A stretch of DNA of 64,000 bases from Vicugna vicugna (lineage: Eukaryota). Positions 20,478 through 52,677 of this stretch are shown here, piece after piece. Below the pieces are notes generated by a model. That model was not told the origin of the DNA. It saw only the letters and a program-made list of their open reading frames with translations, and made no database searches. Location: the NCBI GenBank assembly GCA_013265495.1, contig MU057887.1, positions 73,985-137,984 on the forward strand. The letters are read 5' to 3'. Position 1 is the first letter of the stretch. The number at the start of each line of letters is the position of its first letter. The position numbers and the translations under genes are program-made.

Positions 20478-20569
20478 GACAGAAGCTGCTGGACTCCCTG
20501 GCAGAGACCTGGGACTTCTTCTTCAGCGACGTGCTGCCCACGCTGCAGGCTGTCTTCTACCCGGTGCAG
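20478..20569 (+). CDS. PRR5: PRR5 coding exon 5 (GQKLLDSLAETWDFFFSDVLPTLQAVFYPVQ), HbrB-like domain
   Basis: CCCACAG acceptor; CAG|GTGAGC donor; 92 nt. Confidence 0.97.
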
Positions 20570-20987: not shown

Positions 20988-21128
20988 GGCAAGGAGCCGT
21001 CGGTGCGCCAGCTGGCCCTGCTGCACTTCCGGAACACCATCACCCTCAGCGTGAAGCTGGAGGATGCGCTGGCCCGCGCGCACGCCCGCGTGCCCCCCGC
21101 CATCGTGCAGATGCTGCTGGTGCTGCAG
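20988..21128 (+). CDS. PRR5: PRR5 coding exon 6 (GKEPSVRQLALLHFRNTITLSVKLEDALARAHARVPPAIVQMLLVLQ)
   Basis: CCGCAG acceptor; CAG|GTGGGT donor; 141 nt. Confidence 0.97.
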
Positions 21129-24788: not shown

Positions 24789-24924
24789 GGGGTGCATGAG
24801 TCCCGGGGAGTGACCAAGGACTACCTGCGCCTGGAGTCACTGATCCAGAAGGTGGTGTCACCCTACCTGGGCACCTACGGCCTCTACTCCAGCGAGGGTT
24901 CGTTCACGCACTCCTGCATCCTGG
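24789..24924 (+). CDS. PRR5: PRR5 coding exon 7 (GVHESRGVTKDYLRLESLIQKVVSPYLGTYGLYSSEGSFTHSCIL), ends phase 1
   Basis: Long C/T tract + TGCAG acceptor; G|GTAGGG donor; 136 nt. Not in the ORF track; translated by hand. Confidence 0.96.
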
Positions 24925-25873
24925 GTAGGGGTCGCCTGGGTCTTGGGTGGGGAGCGGGCTGACCACTGGCCTCGTCCACCTCTTCCCCTGGGGCCCAGAC
25001 CTCCCAGTGAAAAGACGTGCAGAACCAGGATCCCAGCAGGATTTGCGTTTCAGCCACATAGCTAACCTGTCCAGAGCATCCTCCAGCTGTGCTGTGTGCT
25101 GGGCACTGGTCACACGGAGGTGGGTCACCTGGGATCCTTCCTTCAAAGGCTGAGGAGGACTCAGTGGGCAGACACCATAAGTGGTGTTGCAGTGACTCCC
25201 CTGAGAGCCCCGAGAGGCCCCGTCACCCCCAAGGAGCTCCCATCCATGCTCAGTCCTGAAACTTAGGAGTTTTCCAGGCAGAGGACACAGCACATGCAAA
25301 GGCCTGGAGCCCAAGAAATCCTGGCCTGTTTGGGGACTCATGGGGGCATGGATGGGTTGTGGGGTGGGCGTGGCCTGGCGTTTCCCCTTTACCAGATGGG
25401 CTTGGCCCCGTTGGCTCATTCGGGGCTGTAGACTGAGCACCTGCTGAGCGCCAGCCCCTCTTCTTGGTCCTGGGGCTTCAGCAGAGACCAAGCCCCACCT
25501 TCATGGGCTCTTGTTCCCCCCGGGAGGCAGGCTAATGGGTAAACCATCCCCAGGTGAGTGCCCGAGGTGACCCGTGCCCAGGTGACATGAGGGCCATGGG
25601 CAGGGAGGTCGGGGAAGGCCAGACTGGGAAGTGACCACTGAGCTGAAGGACAGGGAGGGCCCAGCCCGGGAAGAGGTGCATGAAGAGAACCAAGGGGACA
25701 GTGGCACAGGGGCTGGTCAGCGGTGTCCCCTCGTCCAGAGTGCCCACCCACCTCCGGTATAAACCTGCTCGGCACCGTGTCTCAGCTCCGGCGGGACCGC
25801 AGCACCTGGAGGAGAACTCGGAGCCTCTGCTCTGGTCCAGGAGCCGCCCCTGAGCCGCTCACCGTGCTCAGTC

Positions 25874-25890
25874 CTGCCACCTGGTGGTCA
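25874..25890 (-). promoter_or_regulatory. CTCF motif TGACCACCAGGTGGCAG
   Basis: Reverse complement of CTGCCACCTGGTGGTCA; fits CCASYAGRKGGCRS fully. Confidence 0.6.
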
Positions 25891-26470
25891 CTTTGCAGAA
25901 CTGCAGGGCCCTGAGTGGGAGCCTGAGACCTGCCCTTTACTATTCTCTCCTCCCCACCCCTGACCCCCCAACCCCCTGAGAGCTCCCAGCGCACTCAGGA
26001 TAAACCCCAGCCCCGACCTCAGGTGGCGCCCCGTCCGGGCACTTAGCACTGCCTGACCCGTGCCCACCCAGAGGGATATCTAGGCCCCCATACCTAGCGA
26101 AGTGCTGGCGCCTGGCAGGTGCTGAGACTGGCGACTTCCCACAGGTGGGGCACTTAGCAGGCACACAGGTTACGGGCGGGCATGGTGCACCTTTGAACCC
26201 AGCGGTTGACGAGGCCCCGCACCCCGGCCCGTCCAGGCTGAGACGAGATCACTTACAGGGGTGGAAGCACCGACTCCCCTCGCCCGGCCACTCCGCCCCG
26301 GCAGGGTCTGCACCAGTCGGGCTGTTGCCTGTAGTGGACCTTTTGTGCAGAGCCAGGCGCGCAGCAGATGCACGCAGTAGGTGCTCCCTAGTATCTGGCC
26401 AGAGGGAGGGCCTGGAGCAGGCAGTGCCCGGAGTGGCCCGTGCCTGACGCCGCCACCTGTCTCTCTGCAG

Positions 26471-26946
26471 AGAAGCACTTCCTGCGCCGCTCCCGCTCGG
26501 GGGACGTCCTGGCCAAGAACCCGGTGGTGCGCTCCAAGAGCTACAACACGCCACTGCTGAACCCCGTGGCCGAGCACGAGGCCGAGGGCGCGGCGGCCGG
26601 CGGTGCCGGCATCCGCAGGCACTCCGTCTCCGAGATGACGTCCTGCCCCGAGCCCCAGGGCTTCGCCGACACGCCCGGCCAGGGCCCCGCTGGGACCTTC
26701 AGATCCTCCCCGGCCCCCCAGTCGGGGCCCTGCCCCAGCAGACTGTATCCGCCAGCCCAGTCCCCCGAGCCCGGCCGAGGCCCAGCCCGCGGCTCCCCAG
26801 CCTCCTCCAGCCCCGAGAACCTGGTGGACCAGATCCTGGAATCTGTCGACTCAGATTCGGAAGGGATCTTCATTGACTTTGGCCGGGGCGCTGGCTCTGG
26901 CACGTCTGAGTTTGAGGGGGCCGGGGGCCGGCAGAGCATCGTGTGA
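26471..26946 (+). CDS. PRR5: PRR5 terminal coding exon 8 (EKHFLRRSRSGDVLAKNPVVRSKSYN...GGRQSIV*)
   Basis: CTCTCTGCAG acceptor; the frame of ORF 26440..26946 matches the recalled PRR5 proline-rich C-terminus; TGA at 26944-26946; exon lengths sum to 1170 nt. Confidence 0.97.
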
Positions 26947-27398
26947 GCGCCTCGTGTTTTACTGACCCCATGTGTCTGGTGCGTGAGTGCGGGAGTTTTC
27001 TACTCTGTCCCATCCTGTCCCCCGTGGGCCTCAGCCACCTGGGCATGCCTGAGCCTTTGTGGGAAAAACCGTCGCTGCCCCGGGTCCAGCACCACTGTGT
27101 CCTGGGGCGTCTGCGTGCGGGGCTCGCTAGGTGCCTGGGGCAGCCTTGTGTGTGTGGAGCTGCCATAGCCGTCCCACCACCCTTGCCCGCCCCAGCCCTC
27201 CGATGTCCACACCTTGGAGACTGTGAATCCCTCAGCTTGGCCAGGCCCCCAGAGTGATGGGGTCGGTAGCAGACTGGCCTCTTCCCTCCTAACTCACCTC
27301 AGGCCACAGTGTGACCTCCTGTGCGTGACTCTGTCCCAGACTCTCTGAGCGCCGTGTCTTCTCTTTGCCCAAGGTGGCCGTGGGCAGAGAGCAGGTGG

Positions 27399-27404
27399 AA
27401 TAAA
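27399..27404 (+). terminator. PRR5: PRR5 polyadenylation signal AATAAA
   Basis: First AATAAA after the stop codon, ~450 nt downstream, in otherwise GC-rich sequence. Confidence 0.8.
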
Positions 27405-30400
27405 ACTTGTCTACCTGGCCCCCAAGCTGTGTCTGCGATGCCAGGCCCCAAGGACATCCTCCCAGGGTCCTCACCCTCACGGGGGCCTCCCCTCCCCCAG
27501 AGGGGGTAGGTTCCCAGGGCCAGTTCTGGGCTTCTGGCAGGAGCCTTCTGGGCTAGGTGGGGGACCCCAGACCCCCTTCCAAGTGCTCCCCTCTCGTGGA
27601 GTTAATATTCTGTTGGAGGTGGGGAGGGGACGCCCTCTGAGCAGTAAAGGACAGACCCAGGGCGGGTGAGCAGCGTGACGGGGTGCTGGAGCCAGGTGGT
27701 CGGGGGAGGGAGGTGGACGCCCGGCGGGAAGCATCAGCCCCCAGTGCTCTGCAGGGCGAGTTGTCTGCGTGGACGAGGTTCTCCCGTCTCATGGGAGGAA
27801 CGGGCCAGGAGCCCCGGCTCCAGCCCTGGGTGGGGTGTGGGGGCGGCAGGGTGGGAGCTCCTTCCTGTGGTCTGTGATGGGGAAACATACTGACTGCACA
27901 GGGCCTCATGACCGCTCAGCGTTCAGAAGGTGCCCTGGAACAGTGTCCTGGAGAGAAGTAACCCCAGCCTCAGAGGAACCAGGTTTGGGGGGTGGGGACA
28001 AAGCCAGAAGTCTGTCCCTGGTCTGAGAATCAACAAGAATGCTGCCACTCAGCTCGGCTGGTGGGGCTGAGATCCCTGACCCGCCCCCCCGTTCCCCTGC
28101 TCCCTTATGGAACCCAGGGAGGCCTGGGGCCAGCTCACCCTGGGAGGGTGACGGGGGAGGTGGGGAGCATTATCAGCAGGGTCCCCTTAAGGCAGAAGGA
28201 CCAGACAAAGGGTGGAAGTTGTGGCGGGGACCTGGCTAGCTGGGCTCTGCCTGCACCGAGGGGCTGGGCCCTGTTCTGCCCTCACCTTCAGATATTGGGG
28301 CTCCATTATGAAGGTCTGAGCATCCCAGGCCCCTGTGGGCTGCTGGGCCTGGCCTGATCCCTGGGGACTCTGGTGGCACCTGCTGGCACATAGGCCCAGG
28401 ACCAGGTGTGACCATTGTCCATGGGGCCCCTGAGCTCTGACAAATCCCTCCACCCTGGGGTGAAAGGAGGCCCCAGACACCAGCCAGCTGTGCCTCGCCT
28501 GCCATGGGGAGACTGCAGCCCAGGGAGGGTGGGTGCTGAGCCCGGGTCCCACAGCAGCTCTGGACACTCATTTGGGGCTTCTAGCTGGGGCTGCCCCTGC
28601 TCCCCAGAAAGGGGCAGACCCCTGAGGTGGGCCGAGCTTGTCCATGTGTTATACCCAACCTTGTCTGAAAAATGTTTGAGGTGATCTACATCAAAACGTT
28701 AAAATTGGTATATCATAAATGAAAAATCAGGACTAGGGAACACACAAATTAAGATAGAAGGCCAGCTACTCCTGGTCTCCTGGTCCACAGAAGCTTTCAC
28801 ATACAGCCATATGGGCCTTGGTGGAAGATGAAACCCAGGTGTTCCTCCAAGAACCAAACCTTACAGTGACGGTCACATCACTGACCATGTCTTCCTTTGG
28901 CCGCCAGGGAGCTCAGGCCAAGCCCCAAGCTAGCTGTGGTCAATGCCAACCTATGGCCCTATGTCTGCCCCACCAGCCTGCCTGCCTTCCACCCCCAAGG
29001 CATGGTCTCCTCTCCCCACCCTACACCCCACCTCCTGATTCTGCACCTAATCGCTTCATAGCGCTTGTCACTCTGAAATCCAGGGGTGGAAACAGGGATC
29101 GTGGGGTCAGAATCGCATACAGCGCAGTTTGCATTAAGGGCAGAGTGGAAAGAGACTGGAGAAACTCCCACATCTGCAAATTTACATCTGAACACGGGGC
29201 CGGGGGTCGTGGAGTGACTGGAGCAAGAGGAGCCCAGGGGTTTTAGCTTCATGAGCTCAGGAGAGACTTCCCCCCCTAGAGAAATGAGTTTGTTGTTAGC
29301 TTGTCTCCCCAGCCAGAAGGCAGCCCCGCGCGGCCAGGAGGCTCACCCGCCCCGCTCCCCCCGAGTCCTGGGCCACAGGCCAGTGCCAGCACGTGTTGGC
29401 TATTGGTTAACTAAGGGCTGGTGTGGCCTGGGCTTCAGCCGGGGAATCCTCAGTGGAACGTTGCGTGTGCATCTCCAGGGCTGGGGTTCCAAGGACCGGC
29501 TCACTGTTTTTGTCTTTTGTTGGTTTATTTGTTGTAGATTTTCCAGGGTGACCTCTCACCCCCTCACCTCTCAAATGCAGAGTCTCCGGCTGGCCCGCAC
29601 CTGCTGCTGCTGGATCTGCATCCCGGCCAGACCCGGGGGTCCACGGGCTGTGATCTGCTCCACACACCGGCTACGCTTGGGTTCCGAGGCGGCTGCTCCG
29701 AGGGTTGTCTGGACGGAAAGTCCCGCAGGCTAGTCAGTCAACAGCACTGCAGGCAAAACACACCAAAAAGCAGATGGTGGCTCACCTGCCCGTCCGTCCA
29801 GCCGCCTGCAGTGGGGGTGCTCGCGGTGAAACTCACATCCCCCGCCTCTGCTGGTACCAGGCCGAGGGCTGCTCACCCCGCGGGCTGGTCTTCATCCGAG
29901 GACAGCCGACCCTCACTCCGAGGTCAGGGCGTGAGCACAGAGCTGGTGATCTTATCTGCGGGCAGCTCAGAGAATCTGAGGAGCTGCGGTCCAGACCCCG
30001 CAGCCCACCCACCTCTAGGGGCAGGAGGGACTCCAGATTCCCCTCCCCTGGGGTCACGTAAGCCGTATAGTGTCTGCTGGCTAGTTGTACCAGGCACTGT
30101 GTGGTCCCATTGGTGAGGCTGCTGGCTGCCCCTTCCCACCGGAGGAGCTGGGACTCAGCCAGTTCAGTGTCCCCGGAGGCCTCCTCACCCTCCTGCCTGT
30201 GCCCACCACCCCCGCCTGCCTAGGCTGCCTCTCTCCCCAGTCACAACAACGGCGTCCACGCCTGGCTCCTCCCGCAGGTCAGCACTACAGGCAAGAGCTC
30301 CCCTCCCACTGCCCCTGCCTCGGGGGCCAGGGCGCGCTCTGCAGCCTGGATGGAAGGCCCTTATCAGGGAGGGCCTGTTGGCCTCCCCTACCTGGCTGCC

Positions 30401-32199
30401 CCTACACACCATGCACATGCATGCACACCCACACGCTTGTGCACACGGCACATAGCTCACCTCCCAGAGGCCCTTTTCTGCTTCGTACCTGCTCCTGCCG
30501 ATCCTTGAAGGTTCTCCCGACCAGCCGGCTGCCTGGCAAACACTCACTCAGGGTCCCCGACTGCAAAGTGCTCCCTGGTTTCCCTGCAGGGAGACTCAGC
30601 TGTGCTGTCCTGACCCCCTCCCCTCTGAACCGAGGGCCTGTCAGGTTCCCATGGCACCCTTGGGGCCCAGGAGACAGGAGGGTTAAATGAGACTTCCCTC
30701 CTGGAAGAGGACACAGGGCAGGGACAGCGGGTGACCGCAGCTTAGGACCCAAAGCCGGAGCAGTCCCTGCCTCGCCTCGCATTCTCCATAAATGGCCAGT
30801 GCGCCAGCTGGCAGTGGGGGTCAACAGGCCATCCTTGGGGGGCCCTGCTGGTGAGAGCTTCGCCTCCCCTCACCCAGCAAACATGCTTGTCACTCTCATT
30901 AGACACCGGTAGCCCTCTCAAGATCCTGCTCCGTCCACGCAGAGCAGAGAGAATTCTCTCTGTCTCTGTCTCTGTCTCCTGACAACGGTGCCCCTAAAGC
31001 CATCCAGGGCCCCCACCCCCTCAGCGTCTTTTTTTGCAGAAAAGTCCAGCTCTGTCCCTTTGGTCTTAAACTTTCATATCCAGGCCTGGAGGAGGCTATC
31101 ATATCCTTCTTAACAAACAAAAGCCCTTTCAACCACCAGGCTCCACCTGCTTTCGAAGGCAAGAGAACTGTGTGTGGGAGGTCGCTTCTGGGACGGAGGA
31201 AGGAATTATTTCCTGCCCCACCGGTACCGGCCTGCTGTTGCTCCGGGCCAGCACCTGGCCACAGAGTCCCCCTTCGTCACCTCCTCTAACCCCTTCTCCC
31301 CAGAGCTAGCTGCTACCATCAGTCCTATTTCACAGATGACAAGACTGAGGCCCCACCGCTGTGAGAGGTGAAGCTGGACTCTGTCCCAGCCCTGTCCGAC
31401 AGCAGGACTCTCGTTCTGAGCTTCACTCTGACCGCTGTTGGCCCTCTGGCCTGAGAGCATCCGGAGGCTGGAGTACCTGGGACTTGTGGCTGGGACCTGT
31501 ACTCAGAGGGTGCCCGCAGGTGTCTGCTGGATGAACTGAATCTCAGAGGAGCCTTTCAGAAGAGGCAGAAGAAAGATCAGGCTGGATGTAGCTTACGTTT
31601 TTTCCCTTGAAAAAGATAAACCAAAATCATGTAATATTCTTAACTCCCCCCGCCCCCTTCTCTCAGCTACGATTTCCTTTCTCTGACCCCAGACTTCAGC
31701 TCCAGATGGCACTGATGTGCTCTGTGGCTTCATTCTTGGATGGGAAATGGTACAAACGCAGGTTACACGTGGGTGTGGGGGCAGGGGACATACTGGCAGT
31801 AGCTGGTGTGTCCTAGAAGCACTGCAGGGTGCACCTTTGGCATGTCCCTACGTCTGCCCGCAGTCCTTGGACTGCCACCTGCCCCTGAACGGCTATCAGA
31901 GAATGTCTCTCCATGCCCCAGGGTCCCCACTTCCTTCCCAGCACCCCAAGGGGCTTCCTCAGTGCTGGGGATCCATCCTGGGTGCTGGTGTTAGGGGGCT
32001 GTCTGTCCCCCGGGCCTCACTCAGCATCTGGGAGAACTTCTGGGGCCGCTCGCTGTCTGCCACCCCTGCCCCAGCCTGGTTAGCCAGCCCCTTGTCCCTG
32101 GCATTGCCTGTGGGTGGGCTCAGTCCCCTGTCCCTCCCCAGGCCCCCTACATCTTGTGAACAACAGGGATCCTTTGGGCAGACAGAGAAAAGTGGGAAC

Positions 32200-32674
32200 C
32201 TCTGGACTGATACGAAATCACGCATTTTGGGGGTGACAAGTGGCCTGGAGGCCAACAAAGAAAGATGGGAAAAGGTGGGGATCTCCCGTGTCCGAATGTA
32301 ACTTTTGCTCTCTATGCCTTCATTTCAATAAAATCAGCCTTGCAGATCAGAAGTACCCGTCAGGCACCGATGCCATGACCCTTCCCATCCAGACTCAATA
32401 AGGACAAAAATCCCTCCTCCCCTCGGGAAGGTGGAGCTGGGTGATCAGGGAATAGGACCCCGAACCCTTCCCTCCCCAGTGAGTATTCTGCACATTCATT
32501 TTTACACCCCGTGTAACCAACTTGCCAAAGAGACTCAGGGCAGCTGCTCCCCTGAGCCTGCCCGCTCTCCCCTTGGGAGCGTGCTCTCCAACACTCAATA
32601 AATCTTCACTCTGCTTTCTGGGCCTCCGTGTCTCTTCTCAGGGACAAGGGACAGGAACCTAATCACCGGCAACA
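32200..32674 (+). mobile_element. Probable solo ERV LTR
   Basis: LTR-like R/U5 layout (TGTAACCAACTT...GCTCTCC...CTCAATAAATCTTCACTCTG...) ending in CAACA; family not identified; 5' boundary uncertain. Confidence 0.5.
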
Positions 32675-34447
32675 GTTCCCGTCACTCAAACTTCTATCAG
32701 CACCGACAGCAGCCCCGTCCCAGGTATTTAACCTTGCAGCCACTGCAGCTCCCTCGTCTCCCCCCACTCCTGAGCTGCCCGTCTAGGCTGCCCTTTCTTG
32801 CATAATAAATTTCAGGGCCGCCTCCTCCCTTACAGTATAGGTCCCAGTGGCGTGCCTGGTCACCGTCTGGGCCCTGGGTTTATTCTGGGTAAACCCGCGG
32901 TCTGGCCCCCCGGGGCAGAGAGACTGGGAAGGTGGGGAATCCCAGTAGAGCAAGGGCATTTGAAAGGTGCAGGGTGTCAGAGGACACAACCACGTTCCAC
33001 CCTGACGTCAAAAAGGCATCAAGAACATGACCTGCTCAGCTGCAAGTCAAAAGGGTTTCAACAGTCAGGTCCAAACAACCCAGAAGACGTGGTGGAGCGT
33101 GCACACGGGTTCGACTCGGCTGGCAGTCAGTGCTAGCGACCAGATGCACTTGCTCTGAACTACGGGCCAGCGCACAGGATAGGAGGCCAGGGCGTCAGGA
33201 AATGCGGCCGGGGTTCCTGGCTTGGCTACACAGCCACCAAGAAAGCCTCCTACCTCACTGGGTCTCAGGCCCGGGCCCATAAGGGAGAGAGTTGGAACGT
33301 GGCCCTCCTGCCCGTGCCCACGCTTAGCAGGAAAACCTTAGTTTCATGGTTTTAATAAAATTCAAAGCAGACCAAATCTTGGCTCCAGCAGCTGGCAGGG
33401 AGAGTTAATTTGGGAGAAGACAAATGAGAAGCCCAAGGCTGGATGGGCTGTGGGGGCGGGTCTTTATTTCCTCCTTTCTTCGCGCTCCCATCCCCCAGTG
33501 CTTATTAACGTGGAATTTGCTGCTTGGGGGAGAAGCAACTCTCCGACTTCATAAACATTTGCACGGAGCAAATTTAATAAAGCCGGGAATAATACCATTC
33601 AGATGTAATTCCTTCATTTTGCATTATTATTCTTGCTTTGCTACCGCAAAGCGCTTGAAATGCAAGGAGTTATTGTTACAGCAACAAAAGGAAATGACTG
33701 ACTGGTGGGTTACTGATTAGACGTGCTTGGGGAAAAACAGAAGAAAGTCCCTAAAAGGGAGCCGGCCTGGGTCTCACAGTTCCTTTTTAACTTTTTTTCC
33801 TTTTATTATGAATGGCAGGATACACCTGCAATTTTTTCCCCTACAATCATTCTGTATTATTGCTTTATTTGTACCTATTTTAATACCACTAAGCTATGGT
33901 CATGGAATTTGTATGAGATTTTCGCAAAACACAAATGCGAGGAGGGTGGCCTTCCCCTGACATCTTGTAGTACCTTGAAATTAACGCTGTCAGCCGCAGA
34001 CCAACCGGGGGCTGTTTTATTTCTGTTCAAAGTCAATTTTTGAAACAGAAAACCTGCAAATTGTCCGGCTTTCATGAGACTGATCTTACACTGGGAATAA
34101 AAAAAGATGTTTACATTCCAGAAAAGGAAAAGAGAACCCAGCACAAAGCACTAGACAAACCCAGCCAGTGTGTGAGTCACCGGCATGAGTTTTGTCCTAG
34201 AAATAGGCCCCCTTCCTGATCCAGCCTCGGGCTCAGATCTGCGGGGCTTAGAGGTCAGACAGTTCCGTCCGCTTTCTCACCACCCATGTCCTTCGGGATC
34301 AAGGAAAGTTCAGATACTAATAAGTTGCAAGGGTGCTGTGTGAGGTGAACAGGCCCACGTGCTAGGATGGTTACAAATTCTTTGCACAGAAAAAGGCAAC
34401 TGCATGGGTGACGATAGGGAGAAACTGAGGCCATTCATACACTCGTA

Positions 34448-34582
34448 TTTTTTGTTTTTTGGGTTTTTTTTCAGGGGGCGGTAATCAGGTTTATTTATTT
34501 TAATAGGGACACTGGAGATTGAACCCAGGACCTCATGCATGCTAAGCACACGCTCTATTACTGAGCTACACCCTCCACTCCC
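34448..34582 (-). mobile_element. tRNA-derived SINE, Vic-1-like (camelid)
   Basis: Minus strand reads GGAGGGTGTAGCTCAGTAATAGAGCGTGTGCTTAGCATGCATGAGGTCCTGGGTTCAATCTCCAG (A/B boxes, tRNA-Ala-like), followed by an A-rich tail. Confidence 0.85.
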
Positions 34583-35922: not shown

Positions 35923-35971
35923 TGCAGCACCGGCCCCGAATGACCCCGGGTCATTCGGGGCCGGTGCTGCA
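35923..35971. repeat. Perfect inverted repeat, 24-bp arms, 1-nt spacer
   Basis: TGCAGCACCGGCCCCGAATGACCC-C-GGGTCATTCGGGGCCGGTGCTGCA, checked base by base. Confidence 0.98.
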
Positions 35972-36349
35972 GGAAAACAGCGCCGGAGGGGTAACGCGCG
36001 GGGCGGGGCGAGGGGCGGGGCCTGCGCGGGAGCCACGTCCGGGGCGGGGCCAGGTGAGGCGCGGGCCGAGCGGAGCCCAGGTGAGGAGCCGGCCGGGCTG
36101 GAGCCAGGTAGGGCCCGGGGTTCGCGGGAGGGAGCCCGCCTGTACCCGGGTGGGAACGCAGAGCGGGTTCTGAGGTTGGGCCCATTGCTCAGGTGGACAC
36201 GCCGAGGCGGGGCGCGGCGTCAGGCGACGCGGTGCGATGACCGGCGGGGACCCGAGTGCCCGCGCTCGCCCCGGCCCGGCCCCTCCCCCTCCCCATTTTG
36301 CACAAGCGCCCTTCTCTCCCTCCTCCCGCTCCTCCCGCTCCTCCCCTCC

Positions 36350-36417
36350 NNNNNNNNNNNNNNNNNNNNNNNNNNNNNNNNNNNNNNNNNNNNNNNNNNN
36401 NNNNNNNNNNNNNNNNN
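36350..36417. other. Assembly gap (68 N)
   Basis: Run of N inside a C-rich low-complexity tract of the CpG island. Confidence 1.
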
Positions 36418-37582
36418 CCTGCCCCTGCTCCCTGCCCCTTCCTTGCACCCCCGTCCCCTCCCTTTCTGCTCCCTCCCTTTTCCCGCGTTTTCGCGTTTTG
36501 GTTTGGTCTCAGCCCAGGCTTTTGCCGGCCGCCCATTTCCCTCCTCTAATTCGGGGTCTCCAATCCGGCCGACACATCAGCTCCCTCACTCCGAACCTGG
36601 GAGGCGGGAGGCATCGTCCCGTTTCACAGATGTGAAAACTGAGGCACAGCAGGTGCTGCGCTCACTCAGAGTATCTGGCTGCGGGCGCTGGCCCGTTTAT
36701 CACCAAGACCAAATATGCCGAAAACTTAAATCCGGAGGCTAATCAACCTCCAGAATCGCTTGTTAGGGGAGAGGCCCTGACTGCTTTCACTTTTCCCCAA
36801 ACCTGGCATGGGGCCACTGTCAACAGCACGGGCTTGAGGGTTGCCCAGGGCCTGGCAGGTGTGTGAAGAGTGGCAGCTCAGGCCCCTGGAGAGGCAAGCA
36901 GGGTGTGAGGGGAGGAATTCCTGAGTCCTTATTTGGCCAAGTTGGGAGGGTGGGGACTGGGCCTTGGCTGTCTGGTGGTGCAGACTTCAAAGTTTTGTGT
37001 GAGAGGTTGTGTGGATTCCAGAGAGCACGGCGCTGCTTGTCAGTGAAGTGTGGTGTTGACGTTTGTCTGGGTGAGAATGCAAAACCTGAGACTCAGCAGT
37101 AAATATCCTTTGGTCGGTCTCTGTTGGTGATTTTAGGGTCTTGTTTATGAGTTTCTCCTTTAACGCAATGACTATTTCTCAAACTAACACCAGGGCAGGG
37201 GCCAAGGGGTGAAGAGGGACGCGGGGCACTACCTGAGTCCAGCTAGTCCTTGAGGACAGCCCCCTCCCCAGACCCTGCCCACAGAGAACCCAGAGTCTAG
37301 CCTTTGTGTGACAGAAGGAAACTAGGGGCTTATAGGAGATCAGGGACAGCTTCTTGGAGGAGACGACCGTTGAGCTGGAGGATGGATGAGAGATAGGCGG
37401 AGGAGGTGTGGCACGCTGAGGTCACACACAGGCTGGTTGGCATAGTTGGCTGGTTGGGGATAAACCACCTGTGAGGTGGGGTTGGAAATGCCTGTAGAGT
37501 ACCTGACAGGTGGAGCCGGTAGGAATTTACCTGGACTCAATGACTTGAGTCATTGAAATGCAACCTCAGTGAGATTTTTGTT

Positions 37583-37790
37583 ATATTTATTTATTTATTT
37601 TTTAGATTCCACATAAAAGTGAAATCATATGGTATTTGTCTTTCTTTGTCCGACTTACTTCACTAAGCATAATAATACCCTCCAGGTCCAACCATGTTTT
37701 TCCAAATAGCAAATTTCGTTCTTTTTATGGCTGAGTGATATTCCATTGTATGTACAAACCACATCTTTATCCACTCATCTGTTGATGGGT
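37583..37790 (-). mobile_element. Younger L1 3' fragment
   Basis: (TTTA)n followed by AGATTCCACATAAAAGTGAAATCATATGGTATTTGTCTTTCT...TTTTATGGCTGAGTGATATTCCATTG. Confidence 0.8.
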
Positions 37791-43124: not shown

Positions 43125-44010
43125 TAGCCTTCAGTTCCTGGCACAGGGCTTCCAAAACCCTCGGGATTTCCTGCATGACAGGATGAATTTGGTATTCTTT
43201 TTTTTTTTTTTAAAATGGAGGTGCTGGGGCTTGAACCCAGACCTCCTGTGTGCTGTGTGCACTACCACTGATCTATACCCGCCCCCCTCACTTTGTTATT
43301 CTTAATGAGCCCTTTTGACCTCGCCTGAGGCCACGGTAATGCGGTGACTCAGGATGGCAGCTTCAGGATGGGGGCTGGTCACCAGAGGACCCACCCTCCT
43401 GACTGGAAGGTTAGACCCATCAGCCCCACCTCTCCACCTCCAGGGAGGGGAGGGGGCTGGAGATTGAATTTAACCACCAATGGCTTGGTTTAATCAGTAA
43501 TACCTGTGCAGTGAAACTTGTAATGGAACTTGCATCAAAACACTGAAGCCATGTGGCAGAGAGAGCTTCCCGCTTGGTGAACACACGCATGTGCCGGGAG
43601 GGTGGTACCCAGCGAGGGTGCAGAAGCCCCGTCCATGCACAGCCCCAACCGCCATACCTTGCCCTCTGCATCTCTTCCGTTTGGTGATTCCTGACTTGTA
43701 GCATTTAAAATAAACCTGTCTTTGTAAGTAAAGCACTTTCTTGAGTTCTGTGAGTCATCCTAGCCAATTACTGAACCAGAGCACGGCTGGTCATGGGAAC
43801 CCCCGACTTTGTAGCCAACTCAGACAGACGTGTACCTGGTTGGGGACCTAGGACTTGGACTGGTGTCTGTAGCGGGGGCAGTCTTATGGGACTGAGCCCT
43901 TAACTTGTGGGTCTGCTGCTAACTCTGGGTAGTTTATGTAAGAATAAGACTGTGGGACACGGACTTGGCAGCAGAGGGTTGGTGTTGGAATGACGTATTT
44001 GTTGTTAGAG
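43125..44010 (+). mobile_element. MER21-like ERV LTR, interrupted by a SINE
   Basis: GTTCCTGGCACAGGGCTTCCAAAACCCT...GGGGCTGGTCACCAGA...GGAGGGGCTGGAGATTGAATTTAACCACCAATGG...GAGTTCTGTGAGTCATCCTAGC...GGGACTGAGCCCTTAAC. Confidence 0.75.
43198..43290 (-). mobile_element. tRNA-derived SINE, Vic-1-like, inserted within an LTR
   Basis: Poly-T followed by GGAGGTGCTGGGGCTTGAACCCAG...; flanked by TTTGGTATTCTT / TTTGTTATTCTT target-site duplication. Confidence 0.8.
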
Positions 44011-44467
44011 GAAAACCCTGTACAGGAGCAGAAAGAACAAGGCCCAGGGAAGAGTCTGTGCAAAGGTCCTGGGGCGGCGGAAGCAGCGTGGATTCTGGGA
44101 GAAGCTCAGATGGGCAGGTTTTGTGGCTGGAGCTGCAGGAGCAGCAGGGAGAGCCTCATGTGAGTCTCGATTATGGGCCTGTGGGGTTGGGGGCTCACAG
44201 GGCTCACCCCAGCAGTTACCCCCTAACTCACCATCTGTTGCCACAACAAAACACAGATGGATGACACGCTCAGGCCTGAATGCGCAAACTTCAAAACAAA
44301 TCGTGCTGCCTGTGCTGTGTGAGATAGGCGATGGGGTAAAGGTTTTGAGCTTGCAGAGAACAAAAAGAGGAAAAAAATCACTCTGTCTGGTTAAAGCCGA
44401 GTCTGGAGGGGAAACAAAGCCCTCTTGACTTCAGAGACTCTCGGCCCCGGGCTGTGCTGCCGGACCG

Positions 44468-44510
44468 TGCGGTGGGAGTCCTCCCTCTGCGGTGGGAGTC
44501 CTCCCTATGC
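44468..44510 (+). repeat. 20-bp tandem duplication
   Basis: TGCGGTGGGAGTCCTCCCTC / TGCGGTGGGAGTCCTCCCTA / TGC. Confidence 0.9.
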
Positions 44511-46129
44511 CGAGGACGAGGACTCGGCCTGGGCCCTTCCACTGTCTACCCGGGTAGTCGGGCCGCCTGCCTGCGAGGCTTGCAAGCAAGAATGTTCCAG
44601 GCATGTTCCCTCCTCTGGGCGGGCAGGGCCCTCAGGTGGGGGCCAGTCAGGGCCCCTGATGTCCTCAGAAGGCTGCCTCCAAGCTCTTCATCCAGCTCTC
44701 ACAGGCTTTTCCAGGGTAGCCCAGCAAAAGGGGGCGCGTGGGGCTGAAGGCTGGCGGGGGGAGGGGGCTGCGGTGGAGTGGGGACAGGATGGCTTCCCAC
44801 CTTCTTCAAACTTCAGGAGCCCCTCCTGCCTGTCGTGAGGGGTCAGTGGAATGACAAGGTGGCTGTGAGTCCCCCACAGGACTGAGTGCCCCCAAGGGTG
44901 GCAGCGGTCTTCACACGCACCCCTGTGCCTGGAGTGACGAGGACAGACATGCACCAAGTTCGCAGCTCGGCGGGCTCCCGGCCTGGTCTCCTTGCGGACC
45001 AGCTGCCTGGGCGGGTGCAGGGCTGTGGGTGTAGGTGATTGAGTTTATTTTCTCACTTTCACTGCAGATAGAGGGGAGCTCCCTGCCAGGCGTAGGTTCT
45101 AGGGTCCCAGGCCTGGGTGTTACCCCGCTGCCCCCGGGTACCTGGCTTGGGGAAGGCTGGACGTGGAAGACGGTGCTGTGTCCTGATGCGGAGGAGGTGG
45201 GTGGTGGGGCAGCGCGGGGCCTCGCTGCCTGGTGCTCGGTGCCCTGCGTCCCGCAGGGAGCAAGCCCCAGCCTGTGTGTTCACCTGGCCCCGCCCGCCAG
45301 CCTTCAGCTGCCATCCCGTCCGCCTCCCCTGCCCTCAGGAGATGCAGCCTCTGGAGAACACAGAGGGTACAGGGGTTGGGGACGGGGGCAGTGGGCGGGG
45401 GTGGTCGCAGGTCCAGTCGCTGGTGAGGGTGAGACGTGTGGGTGGTTAGGGGGCCGATCTGGAACTGTCTGTGAGGGCGCTTGCTGGAGGTGGTGGCCCA
45501 GAACTGTAGGCACAGGGGAGCCAGGACGAGTGTGTGTGTGTGTGAGTGTGAGCGAGTGTGTGAGAGACACAGAGAGAAGTGGAGAAGGTGGTGCAGGTGA
45601 CTCCTGCAACCTCGCCTGCCTGTTCCTGGGGTCCCTCTCTCCGGGGGTCTCTGCCCCTCTTTCCCTGCCTTCCCCATCCTGGGCTCCCTCCCTGTGCTCT
45701 GTCCAGCGTCTTCCACCAGCAACCAGCAAGGCTCTTGGTCCATCTCAACTCAGAGAGGGCACAAAGGGCGACACAGCTATCAGTGGCCGCAGAGCCCACC
45801 TGAGGGAGCAGGTGGCCTGGGCTGCAGGGAGTGCTGGCGGGGTGGGGGTGGGGGACAGAGCAGGGGGTGGAGGCTGGTTGAAACTGGAAATGGTCACTGG
45901 TGACATGGCCCCTAGACAGTGGAGAGCTGTCAGAAGGGACACACAAAACCCCCAGGTGTGTCTGTGCCAAGGTGAGAGAAACTGTAAAGGGATCGGAGTA
46001 ATAGGAGGCATCCTGGGGCCATGTCACCGTGTGACCGTGAGCCACTGTCTGCACCTCACTGGCCTTCCTCTTGTTCTCCGATAAATGGGGAGGCAACGGA
46101 GTGGCTCCCTCCTTCCTGCCTTCTGTCTC

Positions 46130-47200
46130 CAACCATTGTTATGAAAATTGTTCAGAGTATAGCAACATGTAAGAAAACACACTTTTTGCCTTGGTTTGGA
46201 AGTTGGTACCGTTCATTATGGATTTTCTCTCTCTTTCTCTCTCTCCGAGCTGAACTCTTGGAAAGGAAGTGGCAGACCCACGCCATTCATTCCCTGCCGA
46301 CTGTTTGAGCATAAAGACGTTCTCCTGTACAACCTGATACCATTCTCACAGCTCAGCAAATGAGCCGTAATTCCTTTAATATCATCGTCCATTCAGGCCA
46401 CGTTCACGCTTCCGCAGTTGTCCCAGGGATGTTTTCGCGGCTCCTTTATAAACCAGAATTCCATCAAGGGTCACATGCTGCGTTTGCTTGTTCTGTCTCT
46501 CCGGCTCCATTCAGTCTAGAACAGTGCTCCCACCCCACCCCACCCCCACGCCTCCCCTGCCTTTTTAAAAAATAACATCAACTTTTAAAGAGGCCAGGCC
46601 AATAAATTGCCTGGTAGGATGGCTCTCATTCTGGGTTTCTCTGCTTGTTTTCCCCCATTATTGTGATATTTCTTGTGTTCTTTGATTCCCTGGGGTGTTT
46701 CCTCTAGAACAATAGAACTGGAGGCTTAATTAGATTCGGGTTGGACCTTTCGGGCAAGAGTATTGCAATGTATCTGAGGGTGCGGAGGTCAGGCTGTCCT
46801 GCAGTCGTGGTGCTGGGCTCGCCTGACTGCGGGGTGGCCACCAGCACGTCACATGTTGTCCAGCACCCAGCTGTGTTGTCCACACCCCTTTCCTGACCCC
46901 CACATCTTCCTCTTTGCAGCAAGAGACGCCAACTCCCATCCCAGATGGCGCTGGCCGTGCTGCTGGTGGCCCAGGCGCTGGGCTGAATATTCCAGGGTCT
47001 GGGGTGCTCGGGGCTGATGGAGGTGGTGGTGGGTAAGCAGACAGAGCTGGTTATGAAACATACATGTACATGCAATCTGATTGTGACTGTAAAATATGGG
47101 TGTGTGCGGACAAAGACCGGAGGGAAGTGTGCAGAAATAAAAGTTGGATACAGGGTCATGAGAGACATCCCCCCAACCCCTTAAATCAGTCCTTCAGTGT
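46130..47200 (-). mobile_element. Old L1ME-like fragment(s)
   Basis: AT-richer block with L1ME-like motifs (GACGTTCTCCTGTACAACC, AATAGAACTGGAGGCTTAATTAGATTC); boundaries uncertain. Confidence 0.45.
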
Positions 47201-50200
47201 GATTGTCACACCATTTTGCTGTTTAGAAATGAACTGCAGAGTAGAGGGAGGTCTGGGGGACTTAATCACGGCGACGTGGAGCGGACCAGGTTCCTTACAA
47301 GGCTGTGTTATCTGCCTGGCACAGAGAAGCTTGGATCAGGGGAGAGCAGCGTCCTCAGGTGCCCTGCTGAGTCAGCGTTGGTGCTACCGTTTCTTACTGT
47401 GTCCGCGGAGTGGAGAGATGGGGTTGTGTGCAGGGCCAGGGCTGGCGTCGGTTGTAGCTCTGTTCTGAGTCAGATTTCCCCCAGAGAGTTTTCAGAAATG
47501 CAGTTTGTTTACCTGTACCACCATCAACAGGAAACTCGTGGGCTTGATCATTCCATTCCCTCAAAGAAGAGAATATTGAGGCAGATTTCATCAAGTGTTT
47601 CAGTATCACTGATTTTTCAAAGAAAAAAATATCAGTTTTGGTGGAAGTGACAGGTCATCTATAACCCAAACTGGCTTAAGCAGAAAAGAGGATTTATTGG
47701 CTCTTCACACTCAGGTACAGCTGGATCCAGGTGCACAGTGTTCTAGGGACATTTCTCTTCTGCCATTCTGTTTTCATTTTCCTTAAGTTCATGTGGTGAC
47801 CCTGGCTAGCTCAAGGCTCACATCCTCTCAGGTTTGGGTCCAGCAGAAGAAATTTTAAAAGCATCTCCTTTCAGTGGCTTTGTGGACGTCTTAGATGTCG
47901 GTCTGATTGGACTGGCTGTTCGTGTCATCGCTCCTGGGTTGATCCCCGTGGCTCAGGGAGTCTCGTGCTGTTACTGACCAGGCAGAGGTCCCGGGGGTGG
48001 AGCCTCACTCGCCATCGCAGGGCTGTGTGTATGCTTGTGTGCATGTGGGTGAGGGAAAGAGTGCACGTGTGTGTGTGTGAGGGAGAAAGTGGGTGAGTTA
48101 CGGGCAGAGGAGGGAGAGGATGCTGGTGGCCAAGAGGTGTCCACTCAGTCCAGCCATGAGCCCTCTTCCTGTGGGGCCGCAGGCCTGGACCCTGGCCGGA
48201 GCCTGTGTGTGTGGCATCGTCCCTTTGGGCACAGTGTGAGCAGTGCTGACTGGGGAGGCCGTGCCTCTGATGCCTGACGGGGTCTCCTGACACCGGCCTC
48301 CCTGCCCGTGTGTGGCCTCAGCAAGCCCTTGCCTCTGTCATTCTCCACATGCGTCTGGTAGACACCCAGTCCTTTCCTCACACTGGTCACTTCATGTCTG
48401 GGCCCCTGTCTCAGCCTGAGCGCTTCTGAAGGCACAAATCCATCCTGCTCTTTGTCGGGGCCCTTGGACCCTGCCTGGAACGGGTGGCAGGTGAGGGGTG
48501 AGGCCATTATTTCATATGAATGGAATCGTGTGATCTTTTGTGATGGCTTCTTTCACCAAGCATCATGTCTTCAAGGTTCGTCTGGGTTGTAGCAGGTGTC
48601 AGCACTTCCTTCCTTTTCATGGACGAATAATACTCCATTGTTCAGATACTAATGGGGATTTTTGTAAAGATGTGCACAGGTTTTGAAGCAGCATCTGGGC
48701 ACAGAATGACCATGTGGTAACTCTTAGCTATGATTGTGATTGCCAGCCCTATGCAGCCATGAGTAGCTGAGATGGAGCTTTGCTGGCCTCAGTCACCCCA
48801 TCTGTAAAGTGGGTACAGGAGTGAGTATGCGTATCTCTGAGGTGGGTGGCTCGGCAGGAATGAAAGTGTCCTTGTAGTGCTGTCCCCACTCCATGTGTCC
48901 CTGATCCCACCGCCCTCCACCCTGCTCTCCTGGGATGTGGGGCTGGTTGGTGAGGGGGAGCCCTGTGGGTGCCCTGGTCGGTGGGCAGTGCCTGCAGAGG
49001 AGGAGGTCACATGTAGAGGCCCAAACATGGGGTTGATGCCACCGTGCAGCTGGACCTTGAGTTGTTCATCGAGGGGTAGTTCTCCCGTGTTGAGGGGACG
49101 GGGTGCAGGAGGGCTGGGCAGGCTGAACCCCGAACACCAGAGTGATCTGCAGTCTTGGCGAATCAGATGGTAAGTGTTTTTTTTTTTTAATGTCAAGGAG
49201 GGAAATTAAACAGCAAACAGGTCACATGAAGGGCGCTCCTTTACTCCTTAAGCCCGGTGCACTTGTGTGTTAAATGCCCCCTGGGTTCCGTGTGCTTCTC
49301 CCTCAGGGCGTCGGAAGGACCCCACGCTCGGATCCTCAGGCGGTGGCATCCGGATGGTGTGCCCAGGCCACCCTGTCCCCCGTCACAGCATGTCCCGGCT
49401 GGACTTGGAGGAGCTGGCCGAAATAGGTAACGCGCATCCTCCCCCAGCCCCATCCTGGGAGATCCCTGGGGCACATTTGTTTTTAATAGGTAATATATTG
49501 ATATGGCTCAGAAAACCCTAGCCCTCTAAGAAGGTGCTCCGTGAAGCTGTCCTTCTACCCCATCTCTGGATTCCCACCTCCACCCTCAACAGCCAACCAT
49601 TAGGGACTTTTTTCTTTCCAGAATTTTTAATACAGATTCACCTGCACCCCCAAGGGTGATGACGGCCATCCTGCTGGGGTGCTGAGGCCCAAATGGGAAA
49701 ATACCCTCATTCACTGCTTCCCGCTCCCTGCTGGGGTGCCGGGTTCTAGACCCCCATTTTACAGATAAGCAGCCTGAGACTGAGTGACCGGAAAGCATGC
49801 CGAGGTCCCCCGGGGACAGGGCCCGGATGGGAGGAGAGCCCGTCATCCAGGTGTGTGGGGAGACCGCTTTCCGTGGCATCAGCTCGTGGAGCTGGTTAAG
49901 GCCACGTGCATATGCGTGTTTAGGTGAGGCGCTGTTTCTGTTCTTGTGTGCAGCGCCGCCAGACTATCTTATTCATTTCACTCAAGTGCAGATTTCAAGG
50001 TTTGCAGGAGCCAGGGCAGCACCTAAGGACCTGCTGAAATAAGTGATTTTCCATCTGCGTCAGCATTTGACACAGATGAGGAACCCTGACTGGGTTTTAC
50101 ATATGCTGCTCGAGAACCCGCAGTTTTACCTTCCAGTTTCTGCTCCTTAACGCAGAAGCATGCAGCCTCAAACCACTTCTCGCTCGGGTCGATTTGGCAG

Positions 50201-50374
50201 CATGATGATGGTAGTGCCAGTTTTAGGGGAGGTGACGTAGTTCTGAGACACGGGCCATCCTGTCCCCGGAAGGGGTCCTTGTTTCCCTCCTCCCCCGCCG
50301 TCCTTAAGGGGCCCAGGGTTCCAGCTCGTCGTCTCTTTACAGGTGTCCCTGCCACGTGCTGGAGCAGCTTTTAC

Positions 50375-50900
50375 TTTTCTTTTTAAATTGAGGTGAAATT
50401 CATTTAACATGAAATTAGCCATCTGAAAGTGAACAGTTCAGTGGTCTTTATGATATTGACAATGCTGTGCAGCCATCACCTCTCTCTGGTCCCAGAACAT
50501 GTTCATCACCCCAGAAGGAAACCCCAAACCCGTTAAGCCATCTCTTCCCCGTTCCTCCCTCCCCCCAGCCCCTGGCAACCATCAGTCTGCTTTCTGTCTT
50601 TATGGATTTACCAGTTTTGGAGATTTCATATAAATGGAATCGTACATTCTATGTCTTTTGTGTCTGGATAGATGACATTTTGTTTATCTATCCATCTATT
50701 GATGGACACTTGGGCTGGTTCTGCTTTTCAGCTTGGTGAGTGGTGCTGCTGTGAACATGGTGTGTACGTGGATTTGTCTGAAGATTTGTGCTCCTTTCCT
50801 TGTGTGCACACCTAAGAGGGGACTCGCTGGGTCGTAGTAATTCTGCGTTCCACTTTTTGAGGAATAGCCAAACTTTTCCACGACGTGCTCCAGTGTCATA
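50375..50900 (-). mobile_element. L1M (L1MB-like) 3' end
   Basis: ATTGAGGTGAAATTC...CAGCCCCTGGCAACC...ATTTCATATAAATGGAATC. Confidence 0.8.
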
Positions 50901-51789
50901 AACATCTATCAAGATGCTTCCAGAAGTGGGGCATTTGTGGGGTTTCCGTGGGGCTGTGTCTATAGGATGTGGCGGGTTTAGAGGTGGGTTACTTTCAGTG
51001 AACATGGGTCAGCCCAGCTCCGGGGCACGGCCTGAAGGTCCCCAGGACCTGGCCTCACTCAGCTCCAGCCTGATCCGCACGCTCCCCTCTGTCTCTGGTG
51101 TGAGGCTGACCAGGATGATCACTTACGGCCCCCATCTTCCTGCTCTTCCTCCTGGACTCGTGACCGTAGCTTTGTGGCCCCGTGGTCTGGCCTGCCCACC
51201 CCCAGGCCTCACCCTGCCTGCGTACCCCCTGCTCTCCCTCTGGCCATGCTTGTCTGTTACCCTTCCCCCACTAGGGCCCTTTCCTCCCTCTGGACCACTT
51301 ACCCTCTCACCCCTCTGTTATTTTATACCCGTCCATCATGAGCACTCAGTATAGACCCAGCTCCTCCAGGAAGCCTGCTCCAACCGCCTGGGATGGGCCA
51401 GCCCCTCGCCCCTGCCCCCTGCAGCCTGCAGGCCACTCAACTGCCCAGGGATCCTGGGAAAACCCGTGGATGGAGCTCTTCAGGGTGATAGGTCCCTACC
51501 CGTCTTCTCTAATTCTCCCCGGGACTCCCTGCTGACACCTCATGGCCTCTGTGCGCCGTTCCCTCCACCTGGATTCCCTTCCAGCAGGTTCCAGCCACCT
51601 GCCTCCCTCCCTCCTTCACGCCTCTGCTTAGAGGTCCCCAGCTCAAACCCCCAACCCTGTGTCCCCCTTAGGCTGCTTGATCTTCCGTTTGCCCCCCACA
51701 CCTGACATCCCTCTGGTGTCTGTTTCTTGACCCCGCACGAAGGCTGGTCCTCGAGGGCAGAAACTGCATGAGTTCCCTAGAGCTCCTGA

Positions 51790-52170
51790 AACAGCCCCAC
51801 AGAGCTCGTGTCTTGGCACAACGCTGTCTGAAGTGCGTTTCACTGGGCGGGTCTGTACTGAGGCCTGTACTCCCTGGGGGCTCCCGGGGAGAAGCTGTCT
51901 CCTGGCTTTTCCACGTGCCTGGGCTTGTGGCCCCCCAACACCCTGCAGCTCCGCATCTTCCTGTCTGTCTGTCTGTCTGTCCTCATATCTCCTCGGATGC
52001 TGACCCTCCTACCTCCTTCTTACAAAGACCCTCATGATGACATTGGTTCCACCCAGATACTCCGGTTTGATCTCCCCATCTCAGGTCCTTCATCATTTCT
52101 GCAGAGTCTCTTTTGCCGTGGAAGGTCCCCTGGTCTCAGGTTCTGGGGATCAGGATGCGGACATCACGGG
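51790..52170 (-). mobile_element. MaLR LTR (MLT1 family), degenerate
   Basis: CCTCCTTCTTACAAAGACCCTCATGATGACATTGG...TCTCCCCATCTCAGGTCCTT...CAGGTTCTGGGGATCAGGATG. Confidence 0.65.
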
Positions 52171-52533
52171 GCTGCCAGTGTCAGCATCTCTCAAGAAGGG
52201 CCCACATTGGAATGTAGAGCCGGGGAGCTGAGTTCACGGCCACACCTTGCTGCCAGTTAGCAGTACGACCTTGGGGAGTCATTCCCTGCTCTGAGCCTCG
52301 GTTTCCACCCCTGACCACACAGAGGACAATATTCAGCCCTTGGCTGTCGTTTTTCCCTCTCCTGGTGCTACGCACTGAGCGGCTGCGCAGTGGGTGCATA
52401 GCAGAGGTGGGTGCATAGTGGGTGCACAGCTGAGACAAGGTGTGTGTCTTAGAAAGACCTCAAGAGGCTCCCTCTCTGTCCTCCATCCTTGGGAATATAG
52501 CTGACTTCCTCTCCCCCTCATTGTCTGCTGTAG

Positions 52534-52677
52534 AGCTGCAGAGAGATGAGGAGGAGGCCGCGGCACTGGGCGCGGTGAGAAGGACCCCGGTGGCGCCCAC
52601 GGCTGGCCCGGACCCTGCTCTGAGCATGAATCACCCCTTCTACGACGTGGCCAGACACGGCATCCTGCAGGTGGCCG
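52534..52677 (+). CDS. ARHGAP8: ARHGAP8 exon with translation start ([48 protein letters not shown]); first in-frame ATG at 52626
   Basis: Pyrimidine tract + TAG acceptor (52531-33); G|GTGAGT donor; 144 nt; [16 protein letters not shown] is the recalled ARHGAP8 N-terminal sequence. Confidence 0.93.

Follow-up and report, generated by a model that had tools for sequence, protein, structure and literature searches.

The 65-nt linker at 52534-52598, lying just ahead of the position at which human ARHGAP8 starts, is almost certainly ordinary ARHGAP8 coding sequence that is entered from a start exon at 49307-49426. The window analyzed is a 64,000-nucleotide stretch of Vicugna vicugna DNA (contig MU057887.1) in which PRR5 and ARHGAP8 are tandem neighbours on the same strand, with ARHGAP8 downstream (Table 1). 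The linker forms the first part of an exon (52534-52677) that encodes the second half of a helix, a variable spacer and then the start of the BCH region. The start exon is located about 3 kb upstream of this exon and joins it in phase 1 and in frame. Translation of 49354-49426, 52534-52677 and 57498-57585 gives the alpaca RefSeq ARHGAP8 protein XP_072829767.1 (101/101 residues) and agrees with the dromedary RefSeq protein at 98 of 101 residues. The "UTR" label that a preliminary description had given to 52534-52598 was therefore wrong, since the segment is coding in the alpaca RefSeq protein. While the exon, its splice sites, its phases and the identity with the RefSeq protein are read directly, transcription would start in the CpG island at 36 kb, which has three GC boxes (at 36000, 36012 and 36041) and contains a 68-base N gap, and translation would initiate at ATG 49354 or at ATG 49390. 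Splicing to one of the other AGs near the 52534 acceptor, at +2, +8 or +10, would shift the frame. The window covers the ARHGAP8 exons up to residue 146, the remainder of the gene lying beyond it.

Table 1. Position of PRR5 and ARHGAP8 features in the window.
Feature	Position	Strand	Remarks
PRR5 exon 1, coding part	1473..1609	+	ATG at 1473; tblastn and boundary check
PRR5 exon 2	11264..11344	+	tblastn, splice sites
PRR5 exon 3	14442..14490	+	tblastn, splice sites
PRR5 exon 4	15775..15832	+	phase-1 donor
PRR5 exon 5	20478..20569	+	tblastn, splice sites
PRR5 exon 6	20988..21128	+	tblastn, splice sites
PRR5 exon 7	24789..24924	+	phase-1 donor; same donor in 643-aa human and lizard fusion models
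PRR5 exon 8, coding part with stop	26471..26946	+	contains RRSRS, RSKSY, RRHSV
First AATAAA 3' of PRR5 stop	27399..27404	+	likely polyadenylation signal
CpG island	36001..36500	.	CpG o/e 0.89; likely ARHGAP8 promoter and first exon
ARHGAP8 start exon, overlooked earlier	49307..49426	+	120 nt; CAG acceptor; GT donor, phase 1
In-frame ATG of camelid RefSeq models	49354..49356	+	RefSeq comparison
Conserved ATG + 12 codons + 1 (MSRLDLEELAEI)	49390..49426	+	first half of N-terminal helix
ARHGAP8 coding exon	52534..52677	+	144 nt; TAG acceptor, GT donor
ACG (Thr) where Met starts human ARHGAP8	52599..52601	+	Met there in Camelus and human
ARHGAP8 coding exon after 52534-52677	57498..57585	+	tblastn, frame
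ARHGAP8 further coding exon	61014..61145 (approximate ends)	+	tblastn

To follow the start exon across vertebrates we used the peptide encoded by 52536-52679 as a query, which gave 110 linker-bearing matches, counted as clusters and isoforms rather than as independent species. ARHGAP8's own start exon precedes the linker in 69 of these, the others having a PRR5 junction (10/110), another upstream piece (11/110) or a start within or after the linker (20/110); peptide searches of this kind are biased toward species with an in-frame linker. In the 67 of 69 own-exon matches that could be placed in register, five residues (A, E, L, D and E) of the motif spanning the exon junction are invariant, and its Met is conserved in 61. 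The same motif was found in anoles, Sceloporus, a frog, catfish, salmon, Gambusia and hagfish, so that at the peptide level it appears conserved through vertebrates. Coding constraint on 52534-52598 had thus been proposed correctly, but its source is not the PRR5-ARHGAP8 fusion: it is ARHGAP8's own N-terminus, encoded by 49307-49426 and the 52534 exon. The internal start codon, described earlier as lost, is indeed absent here, but more likely it was never present, as own-exon clusters carry Met at this position in 8 of 69 cases and Thr in 35 of 69. Among 18 Logan-assembled matches, 12 join the own exon to a 52534-type exon and none contains a PRR5 junction; the own-exon contigs are only 1.1-2.2 kb long and therefore probably derive from spliced RNA. 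One of these 12 matches is of the decayed rabbit type.

The N-terminus of alpaca ARHGAP8 is predicted to be one acidic helix ahead of the BCH-RhoGAP body. AlphaFold2 places a single helix at residues 15-35, over the exon junction, with a pLDDT of 89 for residues 21-30. ARHGAP8 (BPGAP1) is a BCH-domain RhoGAP whose paralogue is ARHGAP1 (p50RhoGAP, PDB 6r3v), and in the alpaca protein (P0416) Pfam assigns CRAL_TRIO_2 (BCH) to residues 78-212 followed by RhoGAP at 256-400. ARHGAP1 is also its best solved relative (E 1.8e-142 over 54-434). The alpaca protein extends about 34 residues beyond the human start, or 46 when counted from its RefSeq start, and the conserved helix lies outside the ARHGAP1 match and is absent from human NP_851852.2. 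Docking of residues 11-45 on 55-430 scored 0.35 against 0.00 for the best control, which gives weak support to a contact; scores of 0.60 or less were obtained for only 5 of 78 solved complexes yet for all 4 passing mismatches of 180, and peptides lie outside this benchmark. The docking runs agree in at least 55% of contacts, with a partner pLDDT of at least 55. Autoinhibition of ARHGAP8 may involve a folding back of the helix onto the BCH-GAP body, a tentative model that we regard as possible rather than probable. The next guess, already rather unlikely, is a putative nuclear-export signal. The CRM1-type consensus has a hydrophobic spacing of x2-x2-x1, and this spacing is present over the exon junction in 94 of 103 motif proteins (isoforms counted separately), although it fits any amphipathic helix. 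A search of the ESM Atlas with residues 13-45 gave a best score of 0.84, below 0.9 and hence a lead only, some clusters having a minority of CRAL_TRIO_N; the Foldseek matches listed were to RhoGAP domains, with none for the helix. Our literature searches found no paper on a conserved ARHGAP8 N-terminal helix or on an N-terminal extension in primates. This ancient helix, missing from human ARHGAP8, is a more interesting lead than the fusion; it opens ARHGAP8 in most vertebrates examined and offers a simple test of how the GAP is restrained.

Annotated human and squirrel ARHGAP8 proteins do not have the junction motif and start at the internal ATG, and in these species the linker decays. The distance from acceptor to domain is 2 mod 3 in all own-exon species listed, whereas the gene-model peptides (not DNA) imply 99 nt in three platyrrhines (Saimiri, Sapajus and Aotus) and 94 nt in two squirrels (marmot and ground squirrel). 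At the peptide level, the readable models without the own exon imply a broken frame in 3/3 platyrrhines and 2/2 squirrels and a preserved one in the 8/8 catarrhines listed. Frameshifts in orthologous linkers, which the preliminary description had named as evidence against its proposal, are therefore probably present in New World monkeys and squirrels but not in catarrhines. Judged from these sequences, the linker frame appears to track ARHGAP8's own exon and not the fusion. Simians and rodents would have dropped the start exon, a loss deduced for human and rodents from annotations rather than from their genomes, and shifted to an ATG arising from ACG at a CpG, after which the linker would have drifted.

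The catarrhines could nevertheless be a special case: once the start exon had gone, the linker would have been kept in frame by the read-through. All eight catarrhine species listed are 2 mod 3 and their platyrrhine sister group is not, the sole length difference (101 versus 104 nt) is a whole codon, and several of the macaque RefSeq isoforms are exon-4 fusions. However, the indel falls in an alanine run, and the acidic residues have drifted, DEE, near-invariant elsewhere, being replaced by DKA or DEA. A rough neutral simulation with assumed rates kept a 65-nt linker open in 21-67% of cases at 0.1-0.2 substitutions per site, which makes neutral survival plausible. We consider this reading unlikely, and it is silent on the present window.

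The PRR5-ARHGAP8 fusion itself is already known for human: it is annotated, as the preliminary description had stated, and published. The human forms are NM_181334/NP_851851.3 (564 aa, exon 4 junction) and UniProt B1AHC4 (643 aa, exon 7 junction); the exon 4 donor is the one given for the RefSeq fusion in a table of PMC6862657. The window resembles the human locus in gene order, strand, phase-1 donors (exons 4 and 7), acceptor exon and open frame. Unlike in human, the acceptor exon is fully ARHGAP8-coding and is preceded by the internal coding exon 49307-49426, which has no counterpart in human annotations, and the linker measures 65 nt instead of the 71 nt implied by the human peptide. Summing the seven exon coordinates confirmed that PRR5 exons 1-7 total 694 nt, or 231 codons + 1, and the join from exon 7 to 52534 is, as claimed, in frame and stop-free through 57498-57585. 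The phase-1 join from exon 4 is open as well. However, two of the seven PRR5 donors are in phase 1, and shuffling a 63-nt linker leaves it free of stops in 66% of cases, so that neither the phase match nor the open frame exceeds what is expected by chance or from ordinary coding. Because the linker is ARHGAP8 coding sequence, its frame is no evidence for the fusion; the read-through would be in frame only by coincidence, through phase-1 introns in both genes. With the fusion published for human and the frame explained by ordinary coding, the open frame here is of no consequence in itself. A camelid read-through that skips PRR5 exon 8 and enters at 49307 or 52534 could probably arise at a low level as a by-product. 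The members listed for the camelid ARHGAP8 clusters (7 and 9 members) include no fusion, a result that informs on annotation and not on expression.

It could also be that both hold: the linker codes for ARHGAP8, and the exon 7 read-through is in addition an old selected isoform. By exchanging half of the N-terminal helix for the PRR5 domain that binds mTORC2, this isoform would recruit a Rho GAP to the complex. In RefSeq models of Anolis carolinensis, A. sagrei and Sceloporus undulatus, PRR5 exon 7 is joined directly to the same ARHGAP8 exon, bypassing the own start exon, and HbrB, BCH and RhoGAP are all whole. Their whole BCH domain means that these models were not copied from the human 643-aa form, so the read-through may have an old origin. 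The exon-7 junction is shared with human, chimpanzee and orangutan records; it has been sequenced in human gastric cells and reported higher in tumours (PMC5095152). Coelacanth, frog and sturgeon models show PRR5 and ARHGAP8 in the same order, and in the window exons 4 and 7 both give an open phase-1 join. The human proteins are however incomplete, the exon-4 form having no HbrB match and the 643-aa form matching the 137-position BCH profile only from 69 to 136. The mTORC2-Rho link suggested for the fusion, already printed as speculation (PMC5804024), gains some independent support from the lizard models; neither human fusion protein examined has both domains whole. Of six yak, deer, muntjac and coelacanth records considered as independent support, five repeat the human 643-aa exon skip, and are probably homology projections, and the sixth (P0051) is without the junction. 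We also rejected as fusions a frog 950-aa record and the sturgeon records, which are merged models without the junction and inform on gene order only, and P0232, which resembled a fusion in length but is a shrew ARHGAP8 whose N-terminus is unrelated. Only 7 of the best 120 of 493 matches are contiguous over both halves of the junction region, and the out-of-frame linkers deduced for three platyrrhines and two squirrels, like the camelid and Logan results above, also argue against a selected isoform. We therefore judge this combination very unlikely. No literature on the conservation of PRR5 conjoined genes was found, and two proteomics papers name PRR5-ARHGAP8 as an entry in a list. The age of the read-through suggested by the lizard models can be checked in public RNA-seq.

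There is similarly little chance that the 52534 exon is an old two-way socket, which, joined to the own start exon, would complete a vertebrate-wide helix that folds back and restrains or places the GAP and, joined to PRR5 exon 7 as in lizards and apes, would lose half of that helix, gain an mTORC2 anchor and yield a de-repressed Rho GAP on mTORC2; if so, the human and rodent ARHGAP8 studied in laboratories would be derived, helix-less versions. Finally, that 52534-52598 is an ARHGAP8 5' UTR kept open only through the fusion fits the catarrhine annotation, where ARHGAP8 starts from the internal Met and the linker occurs mainly in fusion models, but at the level of sequence and annotation it is already refuted for this species, in which an in-frame start exon is present and used by the annotated protein and the internal ATG does not exist.

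PRR5 (Protor-1) is an mTORC2 subunit with an HbrB domain, its role in the complex being described in PMC10903481, and the window has an intact eight-exon gene. Exons 1-7 have GT donors and exons 2-7 AG acceptors, and exons 1-8 encode 389 aa, the end of which matches the alpaca PRR5 record P0007 letter for letter. The HbrB match covers residues 31-131 of P0007, and the three motifs assigned earlier to exon 8 were found there. Our search returned no solved structure for PRR5, and no repeats of at least 40 bases between PRR5 and ARHGAP8 were found in the window. Otherwise without notable difference from human, PRR5 exon 1 encodes one additional alanine.

The window contains PRR5 together with the 5' portion of ARHGAP8 from alpaca or a very close relative; the end of the spliced PRR5 frame matches that of Vicugna pacos PRR5 (P0007) letter for letter, and all 101 residues compared at the ARHGAP8 start are those of the RefSeq protein of V. 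pacos. The first 65 nt of the ARHGAP8 exon at 52534 (the linker) had been labelled UTR in the preliminary description. This label does not hold, because an in-frame ARHGAP8 start exon lies in the window and ends in phase 1 into 52534. The open frame at the linker is thus very probably coding sequence of ARHGAP8 itself. A sequence search with the translated 52534 exon gave 110 matching proteins, which are clusters and isoforms and not independent species. Upstream of the linker, 69 carried the own ARHGAP8 exon, five PRR5 exon 7, five PRR5 exon 4 and 11 another upstream piece, and the other 20 began within the linker or past it. The own exon was joined to the 52534 exon in 12 of 18 Logan-assembled matches, on contigs of 1.1-2.2 kb that we read as spliced RNA from other mammals, and none of the 18 contained a PRR5 junction.

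Features of the PRR5-ARHGAP8 region, in window coordinates
Feature	Position	Remark
PRR5 exon 4	15775-15832	phase-1 donor
PRR5 exon 7	24789-24924	phase-1 donor
Splice target of camel PRR5 models P0004 and P0008	29500-30100	spliced from within exon 8; other C-termini
Hexamer cluster between the genes	32327-34096	six AATAAA
Repeat within CpG island	36049-36109	27-base unit, 2.3 copies; three consecutive CAG-GT donor-like sites
ARHGAP8 start exon	49307-49426	120 nt, phase 1 to 1; ATGs at 49354 and 49390
N-terminal acidic helix motif of ARHGAP8	49390-49426 + 52534-52560	spans the exon junction
ARHGAP8 exon	52534-52677	TAG acceptor, GT donor
Linker	52534-52598	65 nt
Out-of-frame ATG	52546-52548	short frame, stop within same exon
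Human start position	52599-52601	ACG
In-frame ATG	52626-52628	9 codons past human start position
Lizard RefSeq fusion isoforms P0432, P0463, P0465		PRR5 exon 7 to the 52534 exon; BCH exons kept

The peptide across this junction is conserved. In the 67 of 69 own-exon sequences that we compared in register (P0142 and P0208 were left out), five positions are invariant and the motif Met is present in 61, and the exon stretch ahead of it is variable. The 5' part of the start exon is probably UTR, since its frame appears to change in models of dog, cat and some bats. The motif was found in anoles, Sceloporus, reed frog, catfish, chum salmon and Gambusia, with small changes in hagfish; tarsier and tree shrew keep it, and in rabbit and hare it is decayed and still in frame. 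It is conserved from hagfish to camelids, and the annotated proteins of human and squirrel lack it. In human and in most other simian, sifaka, pika and squirrel records, the protein begins with the internal Met or enters the linker from other upstream pieces, and annotation suggests that the start exon is missing in human and rodents.

The acceptor-to-domain distance, deduced from peptides, is 2 mod 3 in every listed species with the own exon, and likewise in 8 of 8 catarrhines. It is 94 nt in marmot and ground squirrel and 99 nt in the platyrrhines Saimiri, Sapajus and Aotus. Because of this distribution the linker frame appears to track the own ARHGAP8 exon, though perhaps not in catarrhines. 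The Sapajus and Aotus models read through the intron, and a Gln fitting the acceptor CAG just before the shifted reading supports its register; the marmot peptide aligns with two alternative frames of the exon in the window, one after another. Frameshifts in other mammals, which the preliminary description had named as a finding that would count against a preserved fusion frame, are thus inferred in three platyrrhines and two squirrels, whereas all the listed catarrhines keep the frame, with acidic residues changed. In a rough neutral simulation with assumed rates, such a linker stays open 21-67% of the time at 0.1-0.2 substitutions per site, taken here as the catarrhine tree length.

As for the fusion itself, recounting confirmed that PRR5 exons 1-7 add up to 694 nt with a phase-1 end, that joining exon 7 to 52534 leaves no stop through the next exon, and that the linker falls 6 nt short of its human counterpart (human length deduced from P0107). 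The open join is nevertheless weak evidence alone, because two of the seven PRR5 donors (exons 4 and 7) are in phase 1 and 66% of 20,000 shuffled linkers are stop-free. The human read-through is already in print: gastric cell lines yielded the sequence of its junction (PMC5095152), it has an entry joining exon 4 to exon 2, NM_181334 (PMC6862657), and an mTORC2-Rho role has been proposed for it, with its function termed unclear (PMC5804024). On the residues by which PRR5 binds Rictor, PMC10903481 gave no more than that PRR5 is a member of mTORC2, and PMC2075366 nothing further. The fusion had been expected to join the Rictor-binding PRR5 domain to a BCH-RhoGAP. Neither human form is a clean join of this kind, because the 564-aa RefSeq form (exon 4) has no HbrB match and the 643-aa form (exon 7) matches the BCH profile in Pfam over its second half only. 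In the RefSeq models of Anolis carolinensis, A. sagrei and Sceloporus undulatus, PRR5 exon 7 is joined to the 52534 exon, bypassing the own start exon, and the BCH exons are retained; in A. carolinensis, where we checked it with Pfam, both domains are present. RefSeq models of this kind usually rest on RNA-seq. They suggest an older read-through, although one of them may have served as a guide for the rest. Fusion models of yak, deer and coelacanth were set aside, as they repeat the exon skip of the human form and are probably projections. In this camelid a read-through is possible and would reach acceptor 49307 before 52534; since the start exon is symmetrical and stop-free, this route is also in frame, and it would retain the whole helix. 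The original observation is confirmed and its interpretation partly supported. Between the genes, the AATAAA cluster could terminate PRR5 run-on transcripts or be part of a mobile element, and the C-termini of the two camel PRR5 models are possibly artefacts.

The locus is of interest for a vertebrate helix that some lineages seem to have lost and for the fusion models of lizards. AlphaFold2, with an alignment of 57 sequences, predicts one helix at residues 15-35 of the RefSeq protein, across the junction (pLDDT 89 at 21-30). Fold-back regulation of ARHGAP8 is a tentative reading. Residues 11-45 folded against the BCH-GAP body at 55-430 scored 0.35 versus 0.00 for the best control, with contact agreement of at least 55% and partner pLDDT of at least 55, which is weak support. 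Scores of 0.60 or less among the passes came from 5 of the 78 solved complexes and from each of the 4 mismatches, out of 180, that passed; peptides lie outside this calibration. Human BPGAP1 is reported as autoinhibited (PMC10011724). Nuclear export is a less likely reading. In 94 of 103 sequences the hydrophobic spacing also agrees with the nuclear-export consensus, a fit to be expected of many amphipathic helices. The remaining probability goes to binding of some other partner. A literature search, which covered mainly open-access papers and neither the first descriptions of the ARHGAP8 and PRR5 genes nor supplements, where the junction may be listed for further species, found no paper on an N-terminal ARHGAP8 extension; PMC13168625 names PRR5 only in its reference list.

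The internal ATG at which annotated human ARHGAP8 starts had been described as lost. Among the 69 own-exon sequences this position is Thr in 35, Ala in 13, Met in 8, Ser in 7, Pro in 4 and Val in 2, and Camelus has Met. Repeated gain appears more likely than loss, because the window has ACG, which a CpG transition turns into ATG. This CpG site makes an internal start codon in camels, sac-winged bat, sloth, tarsier, simians and rodents. Further upstream, the three CAG-GT sites in the CpG island may represent alternative ends of the first exon of ARHGAP8.
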